Positions 3,679 through 37,387 of a stretch of DNA of 64,000 bases are shown one piece after another. The notes beneath the pieces are model-generated. The model was not told the DNA's origin and did not search any database. It saw only the letters and a list, made by a program, of their open reading frames with translations. The first letter of the stretch is position 1, and every line of letters begins with the position of its first letter. The position numbers and the translations under genes are program-made. The stretch comes from Candidatus Thorarchaeota archaeon (GTDB lineage: Archaea; Asgardarchaeota; Thorarchaeia; Thorarchaeales; Thorarchaeaceae): assembly GCA_048882045.1 (NCBI GenBank), contig JBHLRZ010000001.1, forward strand, positions 1 to 64,000. The letters run 5' to 3'.

Positions 3679-4977
3679 ATGAGCCGCTATGAAGATCTTC
3701 TCAACAAGATAGAACGCAAAGATGTCAGGGTAGCAGTAATTGGACTTGGTTACATTGGACTACCGACTGCCATCTTCTATGTGATGCGAGGAATTGATGT
3801 CTTGGGTATTGACACCAATTCAGAGCTTGTCGACCTCCTGAAGAAAGGAAAGGTCCCAATCCATGAGGAAGGTCTGGGGGAATTAGCATCAGAGTATCTT
3901 TCAAAGATAGATCTGCAGACAACCTATGATGATGTAGAAAATGCTGATGTTTGTGTTCTGTGTCTTCCGACACCTATTGAAAAGAGTGGCAAACCAGTCA
4001 CAAAATTCCTTGAGAATGCTGTTGTGGATATCGCGAAACGGATGAAGCAAGGATGCCTGATTTTGAATGAGAGTACAGTCCCAGTCGGAACGACTCAATC
4101 ACTCTTCAAACTCTTCATCAAGGAAAGTAATTTGGATGACAAAGAAATCTGGTTTGCTCACTGTCCTGAAAGGGTGCTCCCCGGGAAGGTCGTTGAGGAA
4201 ATGGACACAAACCATCGTCTCGCAGGGGGTACGAGTGAGAATGCTACAACTCTTGCAGTAGCATTTCTTAAGTCAGTCTTCAAGCCTGAGCTCATTCATC
4301 CGACATCCTCTGGTGTGTCTGAAGCTGCGAAACTGGCTGAGAATGCCTTTCGTGATGTGAACATAAGCTATGCAAATGAGTTGGCCAAGCTATGTACACA
4401 CATGTCAATAGATGTTTCAGAAGTCATCAAGCTGGCGAACCTCCATCCGCGAGTTTCAATCCTGAATCCGGGTCTGGGAGTCGGAGGCTACTGTCTTCCC
4501 AAGGATGGTTGGATCCTGGTAGAGTCAGCGAAAGCAAAGGGTGGACAAGCGGAACTGATTCCAGCAGCACGTCATGTCAACGACAGCATGCCTACACATG
4601 TCGCTGTGAGAATCAAGGATGAAGTCATGACGAGAAAAGAAACAACAAAAGTTGGACTTCTGGGTCTGGCCTTTAAGGAGAATGTATCAGACACACGGAA
4701 CAGTCCGACTGTGGAGTTGTTGAAGTCCCTTACATCTGCTGACATCGATGTCATTGTCTACGACCCACTTGTAGCTGATTCTTTCGGGGCAAGGAGAGCC
4801 AAGGACATGGATGATTTTCTGAAATCTTCAGACATAGTTGTGATGTGTGTGGGACATGATCAGATACGGGATGAACTAAAGTCAAAGGACCTAACGGACA
4901 AGGTCTTCTTTGACCCAAGGCATCTGCTACCCGAGTTGAAGCCGGGTGTGAAGAAGTACATCGGGTTGAGTGTCTGA
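3679..4977 (+). CDS. wecC: UDP-N-acetyl-D-mannosamine dehydrogenase (nucleotide-sugar dehydrogenase)
   Basis: IGLGYIGLPTA, ESTVPVGTT, HCPERVLPG, ENAFRDVNI, GVGGYCLPKD, GLAFKENVSDTRNSP. Confidence 0.88.
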   Translation: MSRYEDLLNKIERKDVRVAVIGLGYIGLPTAIFYVMRGIDVLGIDTNSELVDLLKKGKVPIHEEGLGELASEYLSKIDLQTTYDDVENADVCVLCLPTPIEKSGKPVTKFLENAVVDIAKRMKQGCLILNESTVPVGTTQSLFKLFIKESNLDDKEIWFAHCPERVLPGKVVEEMDTNHRLAGGTSENATTLAVAFLKSVFKPELIHPTSSGVSEAAKLAENAFRDVNISYANELAKLCTHMSIDVSEVIKLANLHPRVSILNPGLGVGGYCLPKDGWILVESAKAKGGQAELIPAARHVNDSMPTHVAVRIKDEVMTRKETTKVGLLGLAFKENVSDTRNSPTVELLKSLTSADIDVIVYDPLVADSFGARRAKDMDDFLKSSDIVVMCVGHDQIRDELKSKDLTDKVFFDPRHLLPELKPGVKKYIGLSV

Positions 4978-5054
4978 TAGATTCTGGGCAAACCTAATCA
5001 GGCTTGAAGAATTCACACAACATAGTTCCTACGTGGTTAAGTGAGTGAATCAAC

Positions 5055-5822
5055 ATGAAGAAATTGCAAGTTACGCTGACACCATCTGAAGGCAAACGAC
5101 TGATAGCAAGAGGTTTACTTGCTACTGAGGCAGTCCAAAATGCACTGAAGAACGGATACCTCTGCATAACAATGGGAACGACATCTTCGTATCTCGCTGA
5201 GGAGATTCTTGGAGAGTACGACAAGACACGCCACATTGCTGGGATAACTGTCCCGAAGGGGCTCGCTGTGACTGAGAAAAAAAGCAGAGCCTTTGATGCA
5301 ATTTTCCACAAAGGCGAATACATAGACAGCAAAAAGGTGATTGATGTGATCGACAAGATGGGATCTAATGATGTCATCATAAAGTCAGCAAATGCACTGG
5401 ATGAGAACTATATCCCCGTAATCCTTCTAGCGGACGACACAGGAGGAACCATCGGTACGTTTGTTGGTGCTGCTGCTACGAAGAATATCAAGGTCATCGT
5501 TCCGGTAGGGCTCGAGAAGTCAATCCCTGTGGCATATGAGGAGTTTTGTGGTCAGTTTGGAAGGGATGACTGGGACTACGCAATAGGAACTCCTGTTGGT
5601 GCAATTGCTCTGACACAGGGAATTGCATTCACTGAGATAGAAGCTATAGAGGCACTATTTGATGCTACAGCAATCCCAATCGCAGCCGGTGGAGTTAATG
5701 GAGCAGAGGGCTCAGTGACACTCTTCATCGAAGGTGGTGACGAGGAGATAGCCAGGGCACACGAGTTCTTTGTTGACCTCAAGGGCGAACCTCCGTTCCC
5801 CAAAGTTGATAGAGTGAAGTAG
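5055..5822 (+). CDS. Conserved hypothetical protein
   Basis: 255-aa ORF co-oriented with ABC genes; LTPSEGKRLIA, GTT, KSANALD, PVGLEK, AAGGVNGAEGS look like an uncharacterised anaerobe family. Confidence 0.7.
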   Translation: MKKLQVTLTPSEGKRLIARGLLATEAVQNALKNGYLCITMGTTSSYLAEEILGEYDKTRHIAGITVPKGLAVTEKKSRAFDAIFHKGEYIDSKKVIDVIDKMGSNDVIIKSANALDENYIPVILLADDTGGTIGTFVGAAATKNIKVIVPVGLEKSIPVAYEEFCGQFGRDDWDYAIGTPVGAIALTQGIAFTEIEAIEALFDATAIPIAAGGVNGAEGSVTLFIEGGDEEIARAHEFFVDLKGEPPFPKVDRVK

Positions 5823-5838
5823 TCTTGGAGAAGTCAAG

Positions 5839-6606
5839 ATGCAGGGCGACGTTGTCATCAGGACCGAGGGTCTGACAAAGATCTTCGAGAAGGGAAAAAA
5901 GCACGAAGTGACAGCACTAGACAATGTCAGCCTTGACATTCGTCGAGGCGAGGTGTTTGGACTCCTAGGACCCAACGGGGCAGGGAAGACAACACTGATT
6001 CGAATTCTCGTTGGCCTGCTCAGCCCAACGAAAGGGAAAGCCTCCGTCCTTGATCTGGATGTTGTGGCTGAAATTGACCAGATCAGGAATAGGGTCGCAC
6101 TCCTTCCCCAAGAAGCAGGAATCTATGAACGTCTCACAGCAAGAGAGAACCTTGTATACTATGGCGGCATGTATGGGATTCCTGAGGACGTCCTCAATGA
6201 CAGAGCGGACGACCTATTGGACATTGTCGGGCTGAGAGAGAAGGAGCACTATCAGGTCAAGGGGTTCAGTGGCGGGATGAAGCGCAAGGTGCTTGTAGCC
6301 CGTGCACTCATCATCGAGCCAGAGATCATATTCATGGATGAACCAACAACTGGTGTGGACACAATAGGAGCTAGGGTTGTAAGAAATCTACTGAAAAAAC
6401 TGAGTGCTGAGAGAGACCAGACCATCATTCTTACGACACATGACCTCAATGAAGTGTCTGAGCTCTGCGACAGGGTTGGAATTCTTTACAACGGGGAACT
6501 CGTTGCTATTGGAAAGCCCTCAGAGCTGGAGCAGAAATATAGGGCAGCCAATCTCGAAGAAGTGTTCACAGGACTTGTCACTGGTGAGGGGGTGTACAGT
6601 GAATGA
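5839..6606 (+). CDS. ABC transporter ATP-binding protein (ABC-2/NatA-like)
   Basis: Walker A GPNGAGKTT, signature FSGGMKRK, Walker B IFMDEPT, H-loop TTH. Confidence 0.93.
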   Translation: MQGDVVIRTEGLTKIFEKGKKHEVTALDNVSLDIRRGEVFGLLGPNGAGKTTLIRILVGLLSPTKGKASVLDLDVVAEIDQIRNRVALLPQEAGIYERLTARENLVYYGGMYGIPEDVLNDRADDLLDIVGLREKEHYQVKGFSGGMKRKVLVARALIIEPEIIFMDEPTTGVDTIGARVVRNLLKKLSAERDQTIILTTHDLNEVSELCDRVGILYNGELVAIGKPSELEQKYRAANLEEVFTGLVTGEGVYSE

Positions 6607-7841
6607 AGAGCAGGAAAAAGACCTCCAACAATGGAAAAAAGACAGTCTGGCTTTTGAAGAAAGAGGTCAAATCAGTCCTACGCTCAAGATGGCTCCTCTT
6701 CGGATTCATGATCAGTCCCCTGTTCGCCTGGCTTTTCCAGGGAGTGTTCCTCAACTTTCTCTTTGCCACAGCAGTGGAACCAGAGTTTGTTTACATTACA
6801 AACGAGGATGGCCTTAGTGGCAACAGTACGTGGGGAGACTATCTGTACAATAGTATCCACGCTCGGTTTGAGTATGAGAAGGGAATTGCTGACGAACAGA
6901 AGTGGCTGAACTATAGGAACCTCACGACCGTCAGTTCAAGTGATGGGATGGCGTTATGGGACAATAGAACAGCGGCTGTCTGGATACTGATACCTGCAAA
7001 CTTCACAGAAGTCTTCGAGAACTTCAATGTTACAACGCTAACCATCTATGTCAATTCAGGAAGCTTCAGAGCTTCAGCAGCGTTCGAAAGAACCAAGAGC
7101 TTTACACAGTACTTGATGAGAGCTACTGACCTCTTGGTACAGCAGATCAGTCCCCCTTCAACTGAAGCGAGCTACGGGCATCAACTTGCCATCTTTCTTG
7201 TCATGATAACTTCTGTCATGGCACCAAGTCCCTACATCAGCAAGTCGTTTGCAGGAGAGAGAGAGCAACACACTCTAGAGGCATTGCTCGTGGTCCCAAT
7301 AAGTAGACTGAGGATTCTAGGTGCGAAACTTGCAGCAGGACTGCTCCTGACAATGATATATTCATCTTTTACAGTTGTGGGGATATTACTATACAATGCT
7401 TTGGTTGCAGTCAGAGGTGCTGGAAGTCTAAATGCTGAGAGTCAGATTGGGTTCTACAGTGTTGCACCTGCTAACATTCCCCTGATCTTCTTCTGCCAGT
7501 TCTTGATACTTCTCTGCGCAATCGGGATTGGTGTAGTCATCTCAACCATGGCAAAAGACCAAGCGACTGCAGAGTCAATCAATAACTTGGTACTCCTTGT
7601 TCCAACAATGGTCATTGGAATACTTGGCTTTGCAGGCAGTATCAGTCAGGTTGGTGGGTTGTTTGGTCTGTTTGTGTACTTGATACCGTTCAGTCATGCG
7701 ATAATGTTTCTCAATGGAGTGTTGTCACCAGCTCCGAACGCTTTTCTATTGACCATTAACGTGGTTTACATGCTAGCTTTCACGATGGTCTTCCTGATTA
7801 TCGGAGCTAAGGCGTTCGAGAGAGAGGCCATCATTGCCTAG
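6603..7841 (+). CDS. ABC-2 type permease (NatB-like)
   Basis: Overlaps ATPase stop (ATGA); N-terminal TM, extracellular loop with N-x-S/T sites, GEREQHTLEALLVVP motif, several TMs. Confidence 0.88.
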   Translation: MKSRKKTSNNGKKTVWLLKKEVKSVLRSRWLLFGFMISPLFAWLFQGVFLNFLFATAVEPEFVYITNEDGLSGNSTWGDYLYNSIHARFEYEKGIADEQKWLNYRNLTTVSSSDGMALWDNRTAAVWILIPANFTEVFENFNVTTLTIYVNSGSFRASAAFERTKSFTQYLMRATDLLVQQISPPSTEASYGHQLAIFLVMITSVMAPSPYISKSFAGEREQHTLEALLVVPISRLRILGAKLAAGLLLTMIYSSFTVVGILLYNALVAVRGAGSLNAESQIGFYSVAPANIPLIFFCQFLILLCAIGIGVVISTMAKDQATAESINNLVLLVPTMVIGILGFAGSISQVGGLFGLFVYLIPFSHAIMFLNGVLSPAPNAFLLTINVVYMLAFTMVFLIIGAKAFEREAIIA

Positions 7842-9238
7842 GATATTGGCCACTTCGGACTGATGTCAATTCCAGCCCTGTCCAAGAGAATCTCAGCATG
7901 TTCCACAGCTCGATCCTTGACTGTTTCCTCATCCAAGGTGAGCAGTTTCTTCCCACGCATCAGGACCTTCCCGTTGACAATGACTGTGTCCACAGCGTCA
8001 CCTGATCCCGAATAGACCAAGTTTGAAACCGGATTGGATGCTGGAGTCACGCTGAGGCCTCGGAGTCCGATTAGAATGATGTCAGCAAGCATCCCAGGCT
8101 CTATTGAACCGACCCGATCAGCGATTCCCATTGCTACAGCACCACCCAGTGTAGCCATTTCGATGGCTTGCTCTGCTGTCACAACGAGTGGATCACCAAC
8201 ATACGATTTATGGATGAGTGCAGCCAATCTCATCTCTCGGACCATGTCATAGGTGTTGTTACTGGGACCCCCGTCGCAGCCAAGCGATACTGGAACTCCG
8301 GTTTCAAGCATCTGAGGAACCTTAGCGAAACCAGATGCAAGCTTCATGTTACTCGAAGGACAGTGAGAAATGTTGGACTTACTCTCAGCAAGAACTTTCA
8401 GCTCCTCATCCTCGAAATGGATGCCATGAGCAAAAACCATGTCTGGACCTAGGAGGTCGTGGTCTTTAGCGAAGGTGGTCAGATTGGTCCCGAAATTATC
8501 CTTGACATAACGTACATCATCAACGACCTCTCCGAGGTGCATTGTCATCCTTGTCTTCTTCTCTCGCGTCCTACGTGCTACTTCCTTGAACAGGTCTGAG
8601 GTCACAGCACCAAGAGAACGCAAACCATACCAGACCTCGACTCGGCCATCAGCCTTGCCATGCCACTTCCTATACATCTCATCAGTCTCGGCTAGACAGG
8701 CTTCAGCGTCTTCCACCATTCCAGGGTACATGATGTCAGGACTGTCTGCATATCCAGTAGAGTCCATGATGATCTTGGAAAGTGCAGCTCGCATTCCCGC
8801 CTTTTCGGCAGCCAGGGCAATCCCATCAAAGCCATACCGAGTGTGAATCATGCACTCAACAAATGATGTGGTTCCTGTGCGAATCATCTCAGCCATACAG
8901 AGTTCAGCAGAAACTCTGCCATCATCCTTGGTGAAGTTGCCTTGAAGAACCCAGACGTACTTCTTGAGCCAGTCCACCAGGGAAACATCATCAGCACAAC
9001 CTCGGATTAGTGCTTGGGCGAGATGAGTGTGGGTGTCAATCAATCCAGGCATCACAATCATGTTCTTTGCATCGATGACCAGTTCGGGCTTGTGGTTCTT
9101 TAGTACCTCAGCTTTACCAACCTCTACAATCTTTTCATTCTCGATGTATACAGACCCATTTGTGAGGATGTCACGCGTAGGGTTCATTGTAAGGACGTAT
9201 CCATTCTTTATGAGAATCGATTTTGCAGACAACAGCAC
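7838..9238 (-). CDS. Metal-dependent amidohydrolase, MtaD/SsnA/TrzA deaminase family
   Basis: PGLIDTHTH, MHLGE, AHGIH, HCPSSNMKLASG, LGCDG; start approximate (GGAGG upstream). Confidence 0.88.
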   Translation of the reverse strand: MLLSAKSILIKNGYVLTMNPTRDILTNGSVYIENEKIVEVGKAEVLKNHKPELVIDAKNMIVMPGLIDTHTHLAQALIRGCADDVSLVDWLKKYVWVLQGNFTKDDGRVSAELCMAEMIRTGTTSFVECMIHTRYGFDGIALAAEKAGMRAALSKIIMDSTGYADSPDIMYPGMVEDAEACLAETDEMYRKWHGKADGRVEVWYGLRSLGAVTSDLFKEVARRTREKKTRMTMHLGEVVDDVRYVKDNFGTNLTTFAKDHDLLGPDMVFAHGIHFEDEELKVLAESKSNISHCPSSNMKLASGFAKVPQMLETGVPVSLGCDGGPSNNTYDMVREMRLAALIHKSYVGDPLVVTAEQAIEMATLGGAVAMGIADRVGSIEPGMLADIILIGLRGLSVTPASNPVSNLVYSGSGDAVDTVIVNGKVLMRGKKLLTLDEETVKDRAVEHAEILLDRAGIDISPKWPIS

Positions 9239-34158: not shown

Positions 34159-34299
34159 CCATTAGATTCATTTGTGTAGAAAACTGACATCCTTAGGATT
34201 CAAATGAACAAGCTCATTCTCGCACTCTGTGGTTTCCCTATAGAGAGTGTGAGTGACATACTTCTCGATAGATTGAGAGAGTTATTTTGAGGAGATTTA

Positions 34300-34563
34300 A
34301 TGACAGACCTGTATCTAGAAGACTATGGGTCCAAAGAAAAGGAAGATATCTGTTGGCAAACAATAGGTGTTCTCTGTGTGGTCATAATTGGGTTTGTCTT
34401 GTTCTATATGGTCTATACATCACTCTGGGAGCTGATGCTTCCAGCAATTTCAGATCGTGGTCTTGAACTAACAAGTCTAGGATTGATTTTTGGAGTAATA
34501 TTAGTAGTCTATATTGTCAGAAGCAAGTCACTAGAGAAAAGGAAGATAATGGCGGCTTCCTAA
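34300..34563 (+). CDS. Small 2-TM membrane protein
   Basis: GAGGAG SD, two hydrophobic segments; last codons overlap the 3' end of the tRNA-Sec antisense. Confidence 0.6.
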   Translation: MTDLYLEDYGSKEKEDICWQTIGVLCVVIIGFVLFYMVYTSLWELMLPAISDRGLELTSLGLIFGVILVVYIVRSKSLEKRKIMAAS

Positions 34564-34640
34564 GAGAATCGAACTCTCAACGCTTGCACCTTCACGGGTT
34601 TGAAGTCCGTGGGACCAGACCACCGTTCCTGTAGAAGGCC
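34550..34640 (-). tRNA. selC: tRNA-Sec (anticodon UCA), 9/4 fold, probably degenerating
   Basis: GGCCTTCTA-CA-GGAACGG TGGT CTGGTCC-CACGGA CTTCAAA CCCGTG-AAGGT GCAA GCGTT-G-AGAG TTCGATT CTCT-TAGGAAGCC-GCCA: 9-bp acceptor, 7-bp D stem with 4-nt loop, long variable arm, 4-bp T stem, G discriminator, encoded CCA. Confidence 0.92.
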
Positions 34641-34666
34641 AGGACTATCTGTGAAAGGGAACTAAT

Positions 34667-35314
34667 CTAAATGTAACGACCAATAATGTTCTGAGTTTCC
34701 CGTTTCCATTCTATACTCTTCTTAGCGAGTTCAGAAGCGATATTTCCAGGCATTGTTTCATCACGAGGAAGTGATTCGATTTTCGATAGCCATGCTGCAG
34801 TTGTGAGTGTGGTTGACGGGATACTCTCCTCACCCTCGGTTGCTTTGATTATCATCTCCCTCCCATGTGCCACCTGAACATAGACATCGTTCACAGGGGC
34901 TTTAGCGAGAATTTCTTTGATAACTCTGTCCCAACAGGTCTTTGCAACCAGTGCTTTCTTGAGTTTGGATCTGTCATTCTCAGATAATGCCTGATACTTT
35001 GAGAGTGTAGCATCCATTGCTTGGATGTGATCATCAACATAGACTGAGAGTGCGACCTCATCATGTCCCATTGCTGTTAGTTCAACAGCAGCCTGTGCTT
35101 TTGTCACTTGAATCGCAGCATGTGCTTCTTCACCTGCAATTCTGAGGGAAAACTTTGCAGACCCGTGGAAATCCTGACTCTCTGCCTCACTATGTTCTTC
35201 TAAAATCAGATTGGGTTTGGATGCAACAACATACCAAGCCAGTCTGAAAACAATGTCAGGATCAACGCTGCTGTAGTTGAGTTTGCGAGAGACCTCGGTC
35301 ATTTCTTCATTCAT
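34667..35314 (-). CDS. Hypothetical protein inside the Sec locus
   Basis: Intact 215-aa ORF, GGGAGGG SD; no recognised motif. Confidence 0.7.
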   Translation of the reverse strand: MNEEMTEVSRKLNYSSVDPDIVFRLAWYVVASKPNLILEEHSEAESQDFHGSAKFSLRIAGEEAHAAIQVTKAQAAVELTAMGHDEVALSVYVDDHIQAMDATLSKYQALSENDRSKLKKALVAKTCWDRVIKEILAKAPVNDVYVQVAHGREMIIKATEGEESIPSTTLTTAAWLSKIESLPRDETMPGNIASELAKKSIEWKRETQNIIGRYI

Positions 35315-35346
35315 TCGACTTGCCCTCCCTCAAGGGTTCCCCTAGT

Positions 35347-35430
35347 CTACTTACTGGCCTCCTTATAGAGTTTAGTTGTGGCTGTCTCCACATCGTTTTT
35401 TGAGGCGCCAATGGCTGCATTCATAACAAT
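35347..35430 (-). pseudogene. spcS: C-terminal remnant of O-phosphoseryl-tRNA(Sec) selenium transferase (SepSecS) fused to the selB fragment
   Basis: IVMNAAIGASKNDVETATTKLYKEASK* resembles the SepSecS C-terminal (Y)IVMNAAIG-x4-D-[VI]-x5-KL motif as recalled from methanococcal/eukaryotic enzymes; not SelB-like. Confidence 0.7.
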
Positions 35431-35740
35431 GTGTTCTCCAGTTTGGACCATTGGACCTTCATCTGCTGCAATAACAATGATTGCTCCATCAATAATGTTG
35501 GCACCAGCAACGACACTCCTGATAAGATCAGCGTGTCCTGGAGCGTCAACTAGAGTGACTGGAATCCGTCAAGTTCCAAAATTGTAAAGCCAAGATAGAT
35601 GGTAATTCCCCGTTTCTTGGCTTGAGGGTGTTTGTCCAGTCCAGCGGTTGAAACTTTCTTGCGCATTGCTTTTGCTAAGGCGTTTTACCATGGTCAATGT
35701 GACTCATGAGCCCAACATGCACTGGAACGAGACTACCCAT
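35425..35740 (-). pseudogene. selB: Selenocysteine-specific elongation factor SelB/eEFSec, N-terminal G-domain fragment with two frameshifts
   Basis: Reconstructed: MGSLVPVHVGLMSHIDHGKT/ALAKAMRKKVSTAGLDKHPQAKKRGITIYLGFTILELDGF/VTLVDAPGHADLIRSVVAGANIIDGAIIVIAADEGPMVQTGEHIV; ends before NKxD. Confidence 0.9.
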
Positions 35741-35825
35741 TTCTGAACTTCAAATGTGGCTGGTGGAATTGAACATAAAACCAGTGTCAGAGGACTTTAT
35801 TGGGACGATTGCTGAATCAAAGGCT

Positions 35826-36251
35826 ATGGTATCACGGTCGTTAGAGAAGATGTTGCTTATTGCAATAGGTCTCTCGACAGCAGTCATTATTGGTGTTCCA
35901 GTCTTGTTGTATGCTATTGAAACGATAAACACGACCACTCAGTTGCAGGAAGCACAATTGGCAGCAGAACTGATTCATAATGCCACAAACACAGTAGATA
36001 CTGGAATCTCCAATTCAACTGCAATCACCATTTGGATCCCCAGAGGAGCGGTTGTATCAGCTGTGGGGAACACTCTTACAGTATCTTTCGCAGAAATAAC
36101 AGAATCATGGACTGAAACATACAATCATGAAATATCAGTTGATGACCCTCCGTTTAATCCTGAAGGCCAATTACTCTATACGATAGAAGTTGTCATGATT
36201 GGAGATGTCATTCACATCGCCTTTGACGCAGTCCCAACATACCGTACTTGA
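35826..36251 (+). CDS. Archaeal pilin-like / class III signal peptide protein
   Basis: MVSR|SLE followed by a hydrophobic helix, then a small beta-rich domain with N-x-T sites. Confidence 0.5.
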   Translation: MVSRSLEKMLLIAIGLSTAVIIGVPVLLYAIETINTTTQLQEAQLAAELIHNATNTVDTGISNSTAITIWIPRGAVVSAVGNTLTVSFAEITESWTETYNHEISVDDPPFNPEGQLLYTIEVVMIGDVIHIAFDAVPTYRT

Positions 36252-36325
36252 ACTCGATGGAGCACAACGTTTTTAATCTAGGCTCAGGTTCTCGCGCCAA
36301 CAGCACCCAGCGAGGACTGAATTCA

Positions 36326-37387
36326 ATGGCAGAAGATGCCGATTATGTCGATGAAACTAGCAATGACGAAGAAGAGTCAGAGCTAGAAGAAGACATTCTC
36401 GTGGAAGCAGAAGCAGAGGGGAAGAAAGAGAGCAGGAAATTTGTTCTTTCGTCGAATCCTCTCGGACTAATTCTGAATCTCAGAATGTTGCGAAGGATAG
36501 TCCAGATTGTGTTCTTCATCGGAGTGAATGGATACATTCTGCTGGCATGGTTCCATATGCCAAACGTCCAAGCATTCTGGCTGTCCATCTGGAATAATTT
36601 ACCATCTATTCCTATTCTTGCGCCACTTGAAGCTCCTTTTGCAGCTATAGCTGGGTCATTTGACACTTTACAGAGGGAGTTATCGTCTGGTATCTTTCCA
36701 TTCTTTACAATCGGTGCCATGCTGATCATTCTCATCATCGTTGGACGTGCTCCATGTGGTTGGCTCTGTCCAATAGGTACAATTCAAGACTTCGTGACTC
36801 TCCCTAAGAGGACCAAGACTCGACCAACACATAATGCGGAGAAAGAGCTGAGACGGGTCAAGGCGTACATTTTCGTTGTAGCAGCATTCTTCGCAGTCTG
36901 GGTGGGATTTGCACGTGCAACCGGCTCAGCAGATTCCCTAGAGGCAACTCTCGGCGATTTGTTTCGAGAAGACGTCTTTGCGCCTCTCAATCCAGCATAC
37001 ATTCTTTTCGTCGAGCTGCCAAAACAAGTGTGGCCTACAGATTTGAACACTCTCTGGTACTTCACTCAGTGGGGATTGCCATTTTTCCAAATGGCATTCG
37101 TCATTCTCATATTCGTCATTTCATTCTGGGTACCAAGATGGTTCTGTAGATGGGTATGCCCAGCCGGATGGCTCTATAGCGTCTTTTCTAGAGATGCTAT
37201 GATAGGAATAGGAAGAAATCCAGCGCGATGCACTCCAGACACGTGTAATGTCTGTGAGGTGGTCTGTCCTATGAATATCAGGATTAGGAAATTCCCATAC
37301 CAACACATGCACAGCCCAGATTGTATCATGTGTCTTGAGTGTAAGAGTCACTGTCCAAACAAAGCAATAGTAATCAGGTTTTCATAG
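36326..37387 (+). CDS. Membrane 4Fe-4S protein (NapH/MauN/FixG-like)
   Basis: GRAPCGWLCPIG, RWFCRWVCPAG, CNVCEVVCP, CIMCLECKSHCP; several TMs; acidic N-terminus. Confidence 0.85.
   Translation: MAEDADYVDETSNDEEESELEEDILVEAEAEGKKESRKFVLSSNPLGLILNLRMLRRIVQIVFFIGVNGYILLAWFHMPNVQAFWLSIWNNLPSIPILAPLEAPFAAIAGSFDTLQRELSSGIFPFFTIGAMLIILIIVGRAPCGWLCPIGTIQDFVTLPKRTKTRPTHNAEKELRRVKAYIFVVAAFFAVWVGFARATGSADSLEATLGDLFREDVFAPLNPAYILFVELPKQVWPTDLNTLWYFTQWGLPFFQMAFVILIFVISFWVPRWFCRWVCPAGWLYSVFSRDAMIGIGRNPARCTPDTCNVCEVVCPMNIRIRKFPYQHMHSPDCIMCLECKSHCPNKAIVIRFS

Follow-up and report, generated by a model that had tools for sequence, protein, structure and literature searches.

The selB-spcS junction

The window analyzed in this study is a stretch of 64,000 nucleotides (positions 1 to 64,000 of contig JBHLRZ010000001.1, assembly GCA_048882045.1) from a Candidatus Thorarchaeota archaeon, whose genome is referred to as G000. 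Pieces of two selenocysteine (Sec) genes are joined on its minus strand. The first is a selB relic (35431–35740), which begins with an ATG at 35740–35738 and covers the first ~105–107 codons, from the P-loop of the G domain to QTGEH. The second is a relic of spcS, the gene of SepSecS (35347–35424), which consists of the last 25 codons (MNAAIG..KEASK), including a conserved AAACTCTATAAGGA motif, and the stop codon TAG. Between them lies the hexamer ATTGTT (Ile-Val, 35425–35430), which may stem from either parent; the breakpoint falls within ~35424–35432. Hexamer and tail together amount to 27 codons plus the stop (35347–35430), exactly where an earlier note, made from the sequence alone, had placed them.

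The minus strand from 35740 to 35431 is read in three successive frames, namely VPVHVGLMSHIDHGKT, then ALAKAM..STAGLDKHPQAKKRGITIYLGF, and then VTLVDAPGHADL..ADEGPMVQTGEHIV. The third frame runs past QTGEH via Ile-Val into MNAAIGASKNDVETATTKLYKEASK and stops at TAG (35349–35347), in agreement with the earlier observation that the similarity to SelB ends at QTGEH-IV and the same frame goes on. By tblastn with the SelB of G004, a genome of the same genus, residues 2–33, 24–63, and 65–110 are recovered in the three frames, and the three segments are 66–89% identical to residues 2–110 of that protein, with 77–89% for the selB part in one of the searches. The last segment also matches Pfam GTP_EFTU (E = 1.2e-12). 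Nucleotide alignment with 15 relatives locates two 1-nt deletions in the relic, near 35681 and near 35563, and after correction of both there are zero in-frame stops. Substitutions include a change of the first Gly of the P-loop to Ser and of GITID to GITIY. The fragment shares with SelB/EFsec (TIGR00475) the translational GTPase G domain, from the P-loop region through DxPGH to QTGEH. An uninterrupted reading frame with domains II–IV, which provide tRNA-Sec binding and the C-terminal extension, is absent.

The 27-residue tail is 78–93% identical by blastp to the C-termini of all of the more than 20 SepSecS proteins fetched from the genus (best E = 4.7e-19). The matched proteins are 444–463 aa long, and the alignments end at their last residue or at most 4 residues before it. 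The longest ATG-led ORF spanning the junction has 34 codons and aligns with positions 418–442 of the 444 positions of NCBIfam TIGR03531 (SpcS); the E value of 0.062 is weak because the matched piece is so short. The archaeal SepSecS ending given in the earlier note is borne out by the Methanococcus maripaludis structure (PDB 2z67), which ends ..YIVMNAAIGVRTEDI..KLEK. The C-terminal motif MNAAIG..D[VI]..KL, also present in 2z67, places the tail with SepSecS/SpcS (TIGR03531; PDB 2z67, 3hl2), and the identification of the tail proposed earlier is thus upheld by both the relatives' C-termini and the TIGR03531 alignment. The C-terminal segment is all that is left; the PLP catalytic core (fold-type I, about 390 residues) is missing.

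Alternatively, the tail could be the natural continuation of a truncated EF-Tu-like or SelB protein. A hydrophobic stretch and a glycine after QTGEH fit the pattern of the EF-Tu family, in which hydrophobic residues and Gly follow xTxEH, and a Pfam search of the 34-aa junction ORF gives no family match. This null result says little, because the Pfam SepSecS model stops before most of the tail. At the corresponding place, the SelB proteins of nine genomes of the genus and of the WOR8 contig described below read VLQSMG or VLSSMG, never MNAAIG. The identity of the tail to SepSecS C-termini, the common stop position, and the alignment to the end of TIGR03531 leave this alternative practically without probability. 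The fusion of a selB fragment to a SepSecS tail is a match far beyond chance. No SelB-SepSecS chimera can be produced from the selB start, since the selB fragment carries two 1-nt frameshifts. Compared with the intact genes, ~23% of selB and ~6% of spcS remain, SelB domains II–IV and the SepSecS PLP core being gone, and both pieces are relics, not functional members of their families.

Support for the assembly

Independently assembled contigs of four public runs, which belong to two studies, span the junction as well as the two frameshift sites, and none of them shows a difference or an indel. They cover window positions 34560–36290 (run X1), 34560–36300 (X2), 34686–36300 (X5), and 35313–35570 (X6). 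The support consists of assembled contigs (Logan), which conceal rare alleles, and some of the runs may be the source of the assembly itself.

The genome is a metagenome-type assembly of 93 contigs, in which a chimeric join, a binning error, or a collapsed repeat might be suspected of producing the junction. Such an artefact is highly improbable. The repeat of 4–8 nt is too short to collapse an assembly at k = 31, the synteny on both flanks of the junction is perfect, and another contig of the same genome holds further relics of the loss of the Sec trait. Because the contigs of four runs cross it without difference, the junction is taken as genuine.

Gene order in relatives and the deleted DNA

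The closest intact relative, found by a metagenome scan, is the contig WOR8_10002848 (L125, hereafter the WOR8 contig). It shares 81–87% nucleotide identity with the window, and 89% protein identity for the neighbouring gene. Its SelB (TIGR00475, 302.6 bits), SpcS (TIGR03531, 442.1 bits), and tRNA-Sec (RF01852, 58.7 bits) all score above the curated thresholds. The order conserved in relatives (ten 20-kb loci) is 4Fe-4S protein, ~140-aa protein, selB, spcS, 222-aa protein, tRNA-Sec, small ORF, PSTK, and TFB, and it is collinear with the window. In relatives, selB typically encodes ~465 aa and spcS ~445 aa, with spcS overlapping the end of selB. The adjacency of the two genes in this order, on which the earlier reading depended, is found on the same strand in all nine 20-kb loci examined for it and in the WOR8 contig, with an overlap of 8–77 nt and nothing between them.

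Alignment to Sec-positive relatives, as suggested with the earlier note, yields both the breakpoints and the deleted content. By blastn, nt 1–2592 of the WOR8 contig correspond to window 38007–35426, nt 4885–6080 to window 35432–34235, and nt 6740–7994 to window 34237–32975. The left alignment (ending at 35426) and the right one (starting at 35432) overlap by 7 nt at the junction. The missing DNA measures 2299 bp against the WOR8 contig and G004, and 2308 bp against eight other relatives. It comprises selB codons ~108–460 and spcS codons 1–~412 only. The possibility raised earlier that pstK or other genes had been lost in the same gap is not borne out, for the gap held selB and spcS alone.

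Microhomology at the breakpoints

A short repeat stands at both parental breakpoints, and one copy (ATTGTT) is left in the window. In the WOR8 contig, the selB site reads GAACAT GTTGTA GTA and the spcS site AGCTAC ATTGTC ATG. In G004 the two sites read GAACAT ATTGTT GTT and AGCTAT ATTGTA ATG, and the junction in the window reads GAACAC ATTGTT ATG. The sequence common to both parental sites is TTGT in the WOR8 contig and ATATTGT in G004. Judged from these sites, the exact microhomology of the nearest intact relative is 4 nt, and that of the ancestor may have been up to 8 nt; a microhomology of 6–8 nt requires that the ancestral selB read ATT, as in G004. The probability that a random junction shares at least 4 nt is ~1.6%, from the sum of (L+1)(1/4)^L(3/4)^2 for L ≥ 4, and therefore a microhomology-mediated deletion is the best reading. 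The removal of most of selB and most of spcS by such a deletion, as first suggested in the earlier note, agrees with the repeats at the parental sites and with the 7-nt overlap of the alignments.

The Ile-Val hexamer fits both parents, SelB having QTGEH[I/L/V][V/I]V and SepSecS having SY[I/L/F]VMNAAIG. Since the Ile/Val-Val codons common to the two genes stand in the same phase, the fusion is bound to be in frame. Microhomology-mediated deletions that make chimeric pseudogene remnants are a general phenomenon of prokaryotic genome reduction. As in those deletions, a direct repeat lies at the breakpoints, one copy is lost together with the intervening DNA, and an in-frame fusion arises by accident; no mechanistic difference was found. 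What is particular to this scar is that the repeat happens to encode Ile-Val in both of two unrelated proteins, with no difference in codon phase.

In the sequence of events that we propose, the ancestral cluster would have carried selB, spcS, the Sel_Asgard gene, and tRNA-Sec on one strand, with pstK and the small ORF on the opposite one. Some 2.3 kb, comprising selB codons ~108–460 and spcS codons 1–~412, would then have been deleted, and the ends would have been joined at the short repeat (A)TTGT, in the same codon phase of both genes. Replication slippage or microhomology-mediated end joining is the likely mechanism.

That all of this DNA was lost in one event, as the earlier note had it, is the parsimonious view and falls short of proof, since nested deletions would give an identical single junction. 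Two or more successive deletions, of which the present junction is only the last, would accord with the typical erosion of pseudogenes in archaea and bacteria, which proceeds through numerous small deletions, and at least two further independent deletions occurred in the same cluster. Against this, both flanks align to the intact relative up to a single microhomologous junction, with no filler and no leftover islands, and the selB relic is young. A stepwise loss is therefore considered unlikely, and a single deletion of ~2.3 kb is preferred.

Other lesions of the Sec system

The genome is 93% complete, and the Sec loci themselves are present with scars. In G000, SepSecS is absent: PF05889 has no match at E ≤ 10, and tblastn recovers only residues 418–445. 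SepSecS is present in 21 of the 24 sampled genomes of the genus. PSTK is absent as well, TIGR03574 having no match genome-wide, and searches of this genome reveal no true SelD and no second copy of SelB.

The PSTK relic (34204–34290, plus strand) is a 28-codon ORF in which ~12 N-terminal codons (MNKLILALCGFP) are joined to ~14 C-terminal ones (..ILLDRLRELF). It arose by an internal deletion of its own, of 662 bp by blastn against G004 and the WOR8 contig, of which nt 6081–6739 are absent from the window. With the PSTK of G004 as a tblastn query, residues 5–20 and 240–257 are matched. Between PSTK and tRNA-Sec, an 87-aa membrane-protein ORF of no family (34300–34563, plus strand) is intact; it shares 67% identity with a 90-aa ORF at the same place in the WOR8 contig and aligns with G004 too. 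Its 3′ end overlaps the tRNA-Sec gene of the opposite strand.

The tRNA-Sec relic (34554–34640, minus strand) retains the UCA anticodon, and pairs are broken in its acceptor, anticodon, and variable arms. Its Infernal score with Rfam RF01852 is 46.0 bits, below the gathering score of 47, whereas relatives score 55–61. Infernal thus still detects the relic, and ARAGORN makes no tRNA-Sec call there. The minimum free energy fold lacks a cloverleaf (−26 kcal/mol, z = −0.35), compared with −37.7 and z = −3.2 for the WOR8 tRNA-Sec.

On contig C9 of the same genome, the selD ORF (~1 kb) has been excised between the same two neighbours as in relatives. At C9:7299–7650, where its neighbours are a 257-aa gene and rtcB, the cut follows the limits of the ORF almost exactly, and ~85 nt resembling the 3′ end of the G004 selD and its 3′ flank are left; of the ORF itself, only about 20 nt of the end, besides the 3′ flank, are detectable there. 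This leftover might hold an orphan SECIS element. Relatives carry a TGA-containing or a fused selD: G001, G003, and G013 (L057–L059) have a fused SelD of ~745 aa that lacks an in-frame TGA, and the others a ~345-aa Sec-containing SelD. It is the only gene in which an in-frame TGA was seen. None was observed in FlpD/MvhD, the NiFe(Se) hydrogenase large subunit, or AhpC/Prx of the Sec-minus genomes G000, G012, and G020 and the Sec-plus genomes G004 and G002, the FlpD gene chosen in G000 having no HdrA neighbour.

Taken with these lesions, the stretch at 35347–35740 is very probably a non-functional deletion scar, one of several, within the cluster of Sec genes of an Asgard archaeon of the Thorarchaeia type, in which the Sec trait is lost. 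The use of Sec would have been abolished jointly by this scar, the internal deletion of pstK, the excision of selD, and the decay of tRNA-Sec.

Age and order of the lesions

Lineage-specific changes at codon positions 1/2/3, counted with G004 and G002 as outgroups, number 6/5/16 in the selB relic and 2/1/9 in the selB of WOR8. Constraint on selB has been relaxed during no more than a small portion of the branch, and the loss is therefore fairly recent. At positions invariant in the genus, the selB relic has changed at 6 of 169 (other genomes 0–4) and tRNA-Sec at 4 of 65. The corresponding rates of 3.6% and 6.2% are compared by a Fisher test (p = 0.47) that has no power to order the lesions. 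The spcS tail has changed at 0 of 24 positions, with ~0.9 expected at the rate of the selB relic, and its intactness in G000 alone is no evidence of constraint.

The earlier note held the selB-spcS deletion to be probably the initial knockout. This goes beyond what the relics can tell. Besides it, five or more lesions are present (the two frameshifts in selB, the PSTK deletion, the selD excision, and the tRNA-Sec substitutions), and because their decay is statistically indistinguishable, the order of the lesions is unreadable. The loss of two essential genes by a single deletion would be enough to abolish Sec use, and the selB frameshifts, the decay of tRNA-Sec, and the deletions affecting PSTK and selD could all be a later neutral clean-up. 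All of the relics are young and differ little in age, which is compatible with any order, including this one. Nevertheless, nothing sets the selB-spcS deletion apart from the other lesions, which together with it number at least six. If anything, the tRNA-Sec relic has diverged a little further than the selB relic, the two selB frameshifts could equally predate the deletion, and in G012 and G020 the locus was trimmed by several different deletions after or during Sec loss. A first, trait-killing role of the selB-spcS deletion in particular is accordingly rather doubtful.

Retention of the Sel_Asgard gene and the spcS 3′ end

Downstream of the scar lies an intact gene of 215 aa (34667–35314, minus strand), which matches NCBIfam NF045535, 'putative selenocysteine system protein', with 211.9 bits at a cut-off of 132. 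This Sel_Asgard gene is present in 26 of 28 genomes of the genus and is intact in all three Sec-minus genomes. Its lineage-specific changes at the three codon positions are 11/2/35 in G000 and 15/7/35 in G012. The bias toward third positions implies purifying selection on the gene without a Sec system, and its retention in three Sec-minus genomes suggests a Sec-independent role.

The motif AAACT[C/T]NATAAGGA occurs ~50 nt before the start of the Sel_Asgard gene, inside the last codons of spcS; the putative promoter motif within the spcS end can also be written CTATAAGG. It is kept with few variations in 26 of 26 aligned genomes, the Sec-minus G012 and G020 included. Between G012 and G004, the window from −60 to −31 with the TATA-like motif is identical at 28 of 30 positions, and identity falls to 17 of 30 at −120 to −91. 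TATA-like words are enriched genome-wide in G000 at −60 to −41 of SD-led starts. From this conservation and position, the motif is likely to be the BRE/TATA promoter of the downstream gene. None of the three losses (G000, G012, and G020) extends to the downstream gene or to the 3′ end of spcS, and this end has probably survived because it carries the promoter of a gene that is still needed. In the spcS relic of G020 (L075, G020:C387, about 8650–8720), the ACCAAACTCTAT portion of this putative motif is also repeated by a tandem duplication of 22 nt.

Repeated loss of Sec within the genus

Two other species of the genus, with the genomes G012 and G020, lost the system independently and are also without SepSecS, PSTK, and SelD. 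In both, selB is wholly gone and the spcS 3′ end is kept in a decayed form (residues ~377–445 in G012 and ~389–444 in G020). The tRNA-Sec is lost in G012 and persists as a relic of 37.6 bits in G020. The breakpoints differ among G000, G012, and G020, and the three states are not nested.

A tree built from two genes places G020 with the Sec-positive G016 (support 91/93) and unites G000, G004, G012, and G002 in one clade (support 96/96). Every bootstrap tree requires three changes of the Sec-minus label, of which at least two are imposed by branches with good support. Protein identity pairs G000 with WOR8 (89%) and G012 with G004 (83%), WOR8 and G004 being Sec-positive. A broader scenario, which we put forward tentatively and hold to be slightly short of an even chance, is that the Sec system collapsed at least three separate times in one Thorarchaeia genus (G000, G012, and G020), by different deletions each time and always sparing the Sel_Asgard gene together with the last ~35–85 nt of spcS as its promoter. 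Sel_Asgard would then be Sec-independent, and the Sec trait near-dispensable in the clade.

Sec loss in Asgard archaea

Independent loss of Sec is established in many lineages (Mariotti et al. 2016, PMC4989117). In Thorarchaeia, 77.4% have been reported to use Sec, and loss has been suspected in some lineages (Huang et al. 2024, PMC11227280). These surveys deal with the same phylum and the same components as the present study. They score presence and absence, whereas here scars, breakpoints, and the order of neighbours are resolved, together with three separate losses within one genus. The word 'pseudogene' is absent from PMC11227280, and no description of these scars was found in the literature searched.

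The scar is an ordinary, clean example of Sec-trait loss, a known kind of event seen in unusual detail, and it leaves existing knowledge of Sec biology unchanged. That the 21st amino acid has been lost is usually deduced from tables of presence and absence. In this Asgard archaeon, with an intact sister sequence at hand for comparison, the physical steps of the loss are visible at base-pair breakpoints. It offers a dated, young case of a multi-gene recoding system dismantled by several precise deletions rather than by slow point decay. The 34-codon chimeric ORF and the 28-codon ORF that joins the head and tail of PSTK are scars, not genes, and should be regarded as such in annotation. The locus also hints, in a way open to testing, that Sel_Asgard is no dedicated selenocysteine protein.

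Flanking genes

Two neighbouring genes on the plus strand appear to be listed with starts too far upstream. For the 4Fe-4S-type protein (36248–37387), the ATG at codon 27 is likely the true start instead of the listed TTG, because many relatives have a TGA at about codon 22 and all align from MAEDxD. The single TGA scored in the homologues of relatives was considered as a Sec codon and rejected, being a stop upstream of the true start. The 181-aa ORF (35706–36251), divergent from selB and of no family, probably starts near 35820, since the versions in relatives are shorter (135–144 aa). The part of the listed ORF upstream of that start overlaps the selB relic of the opposite strand.
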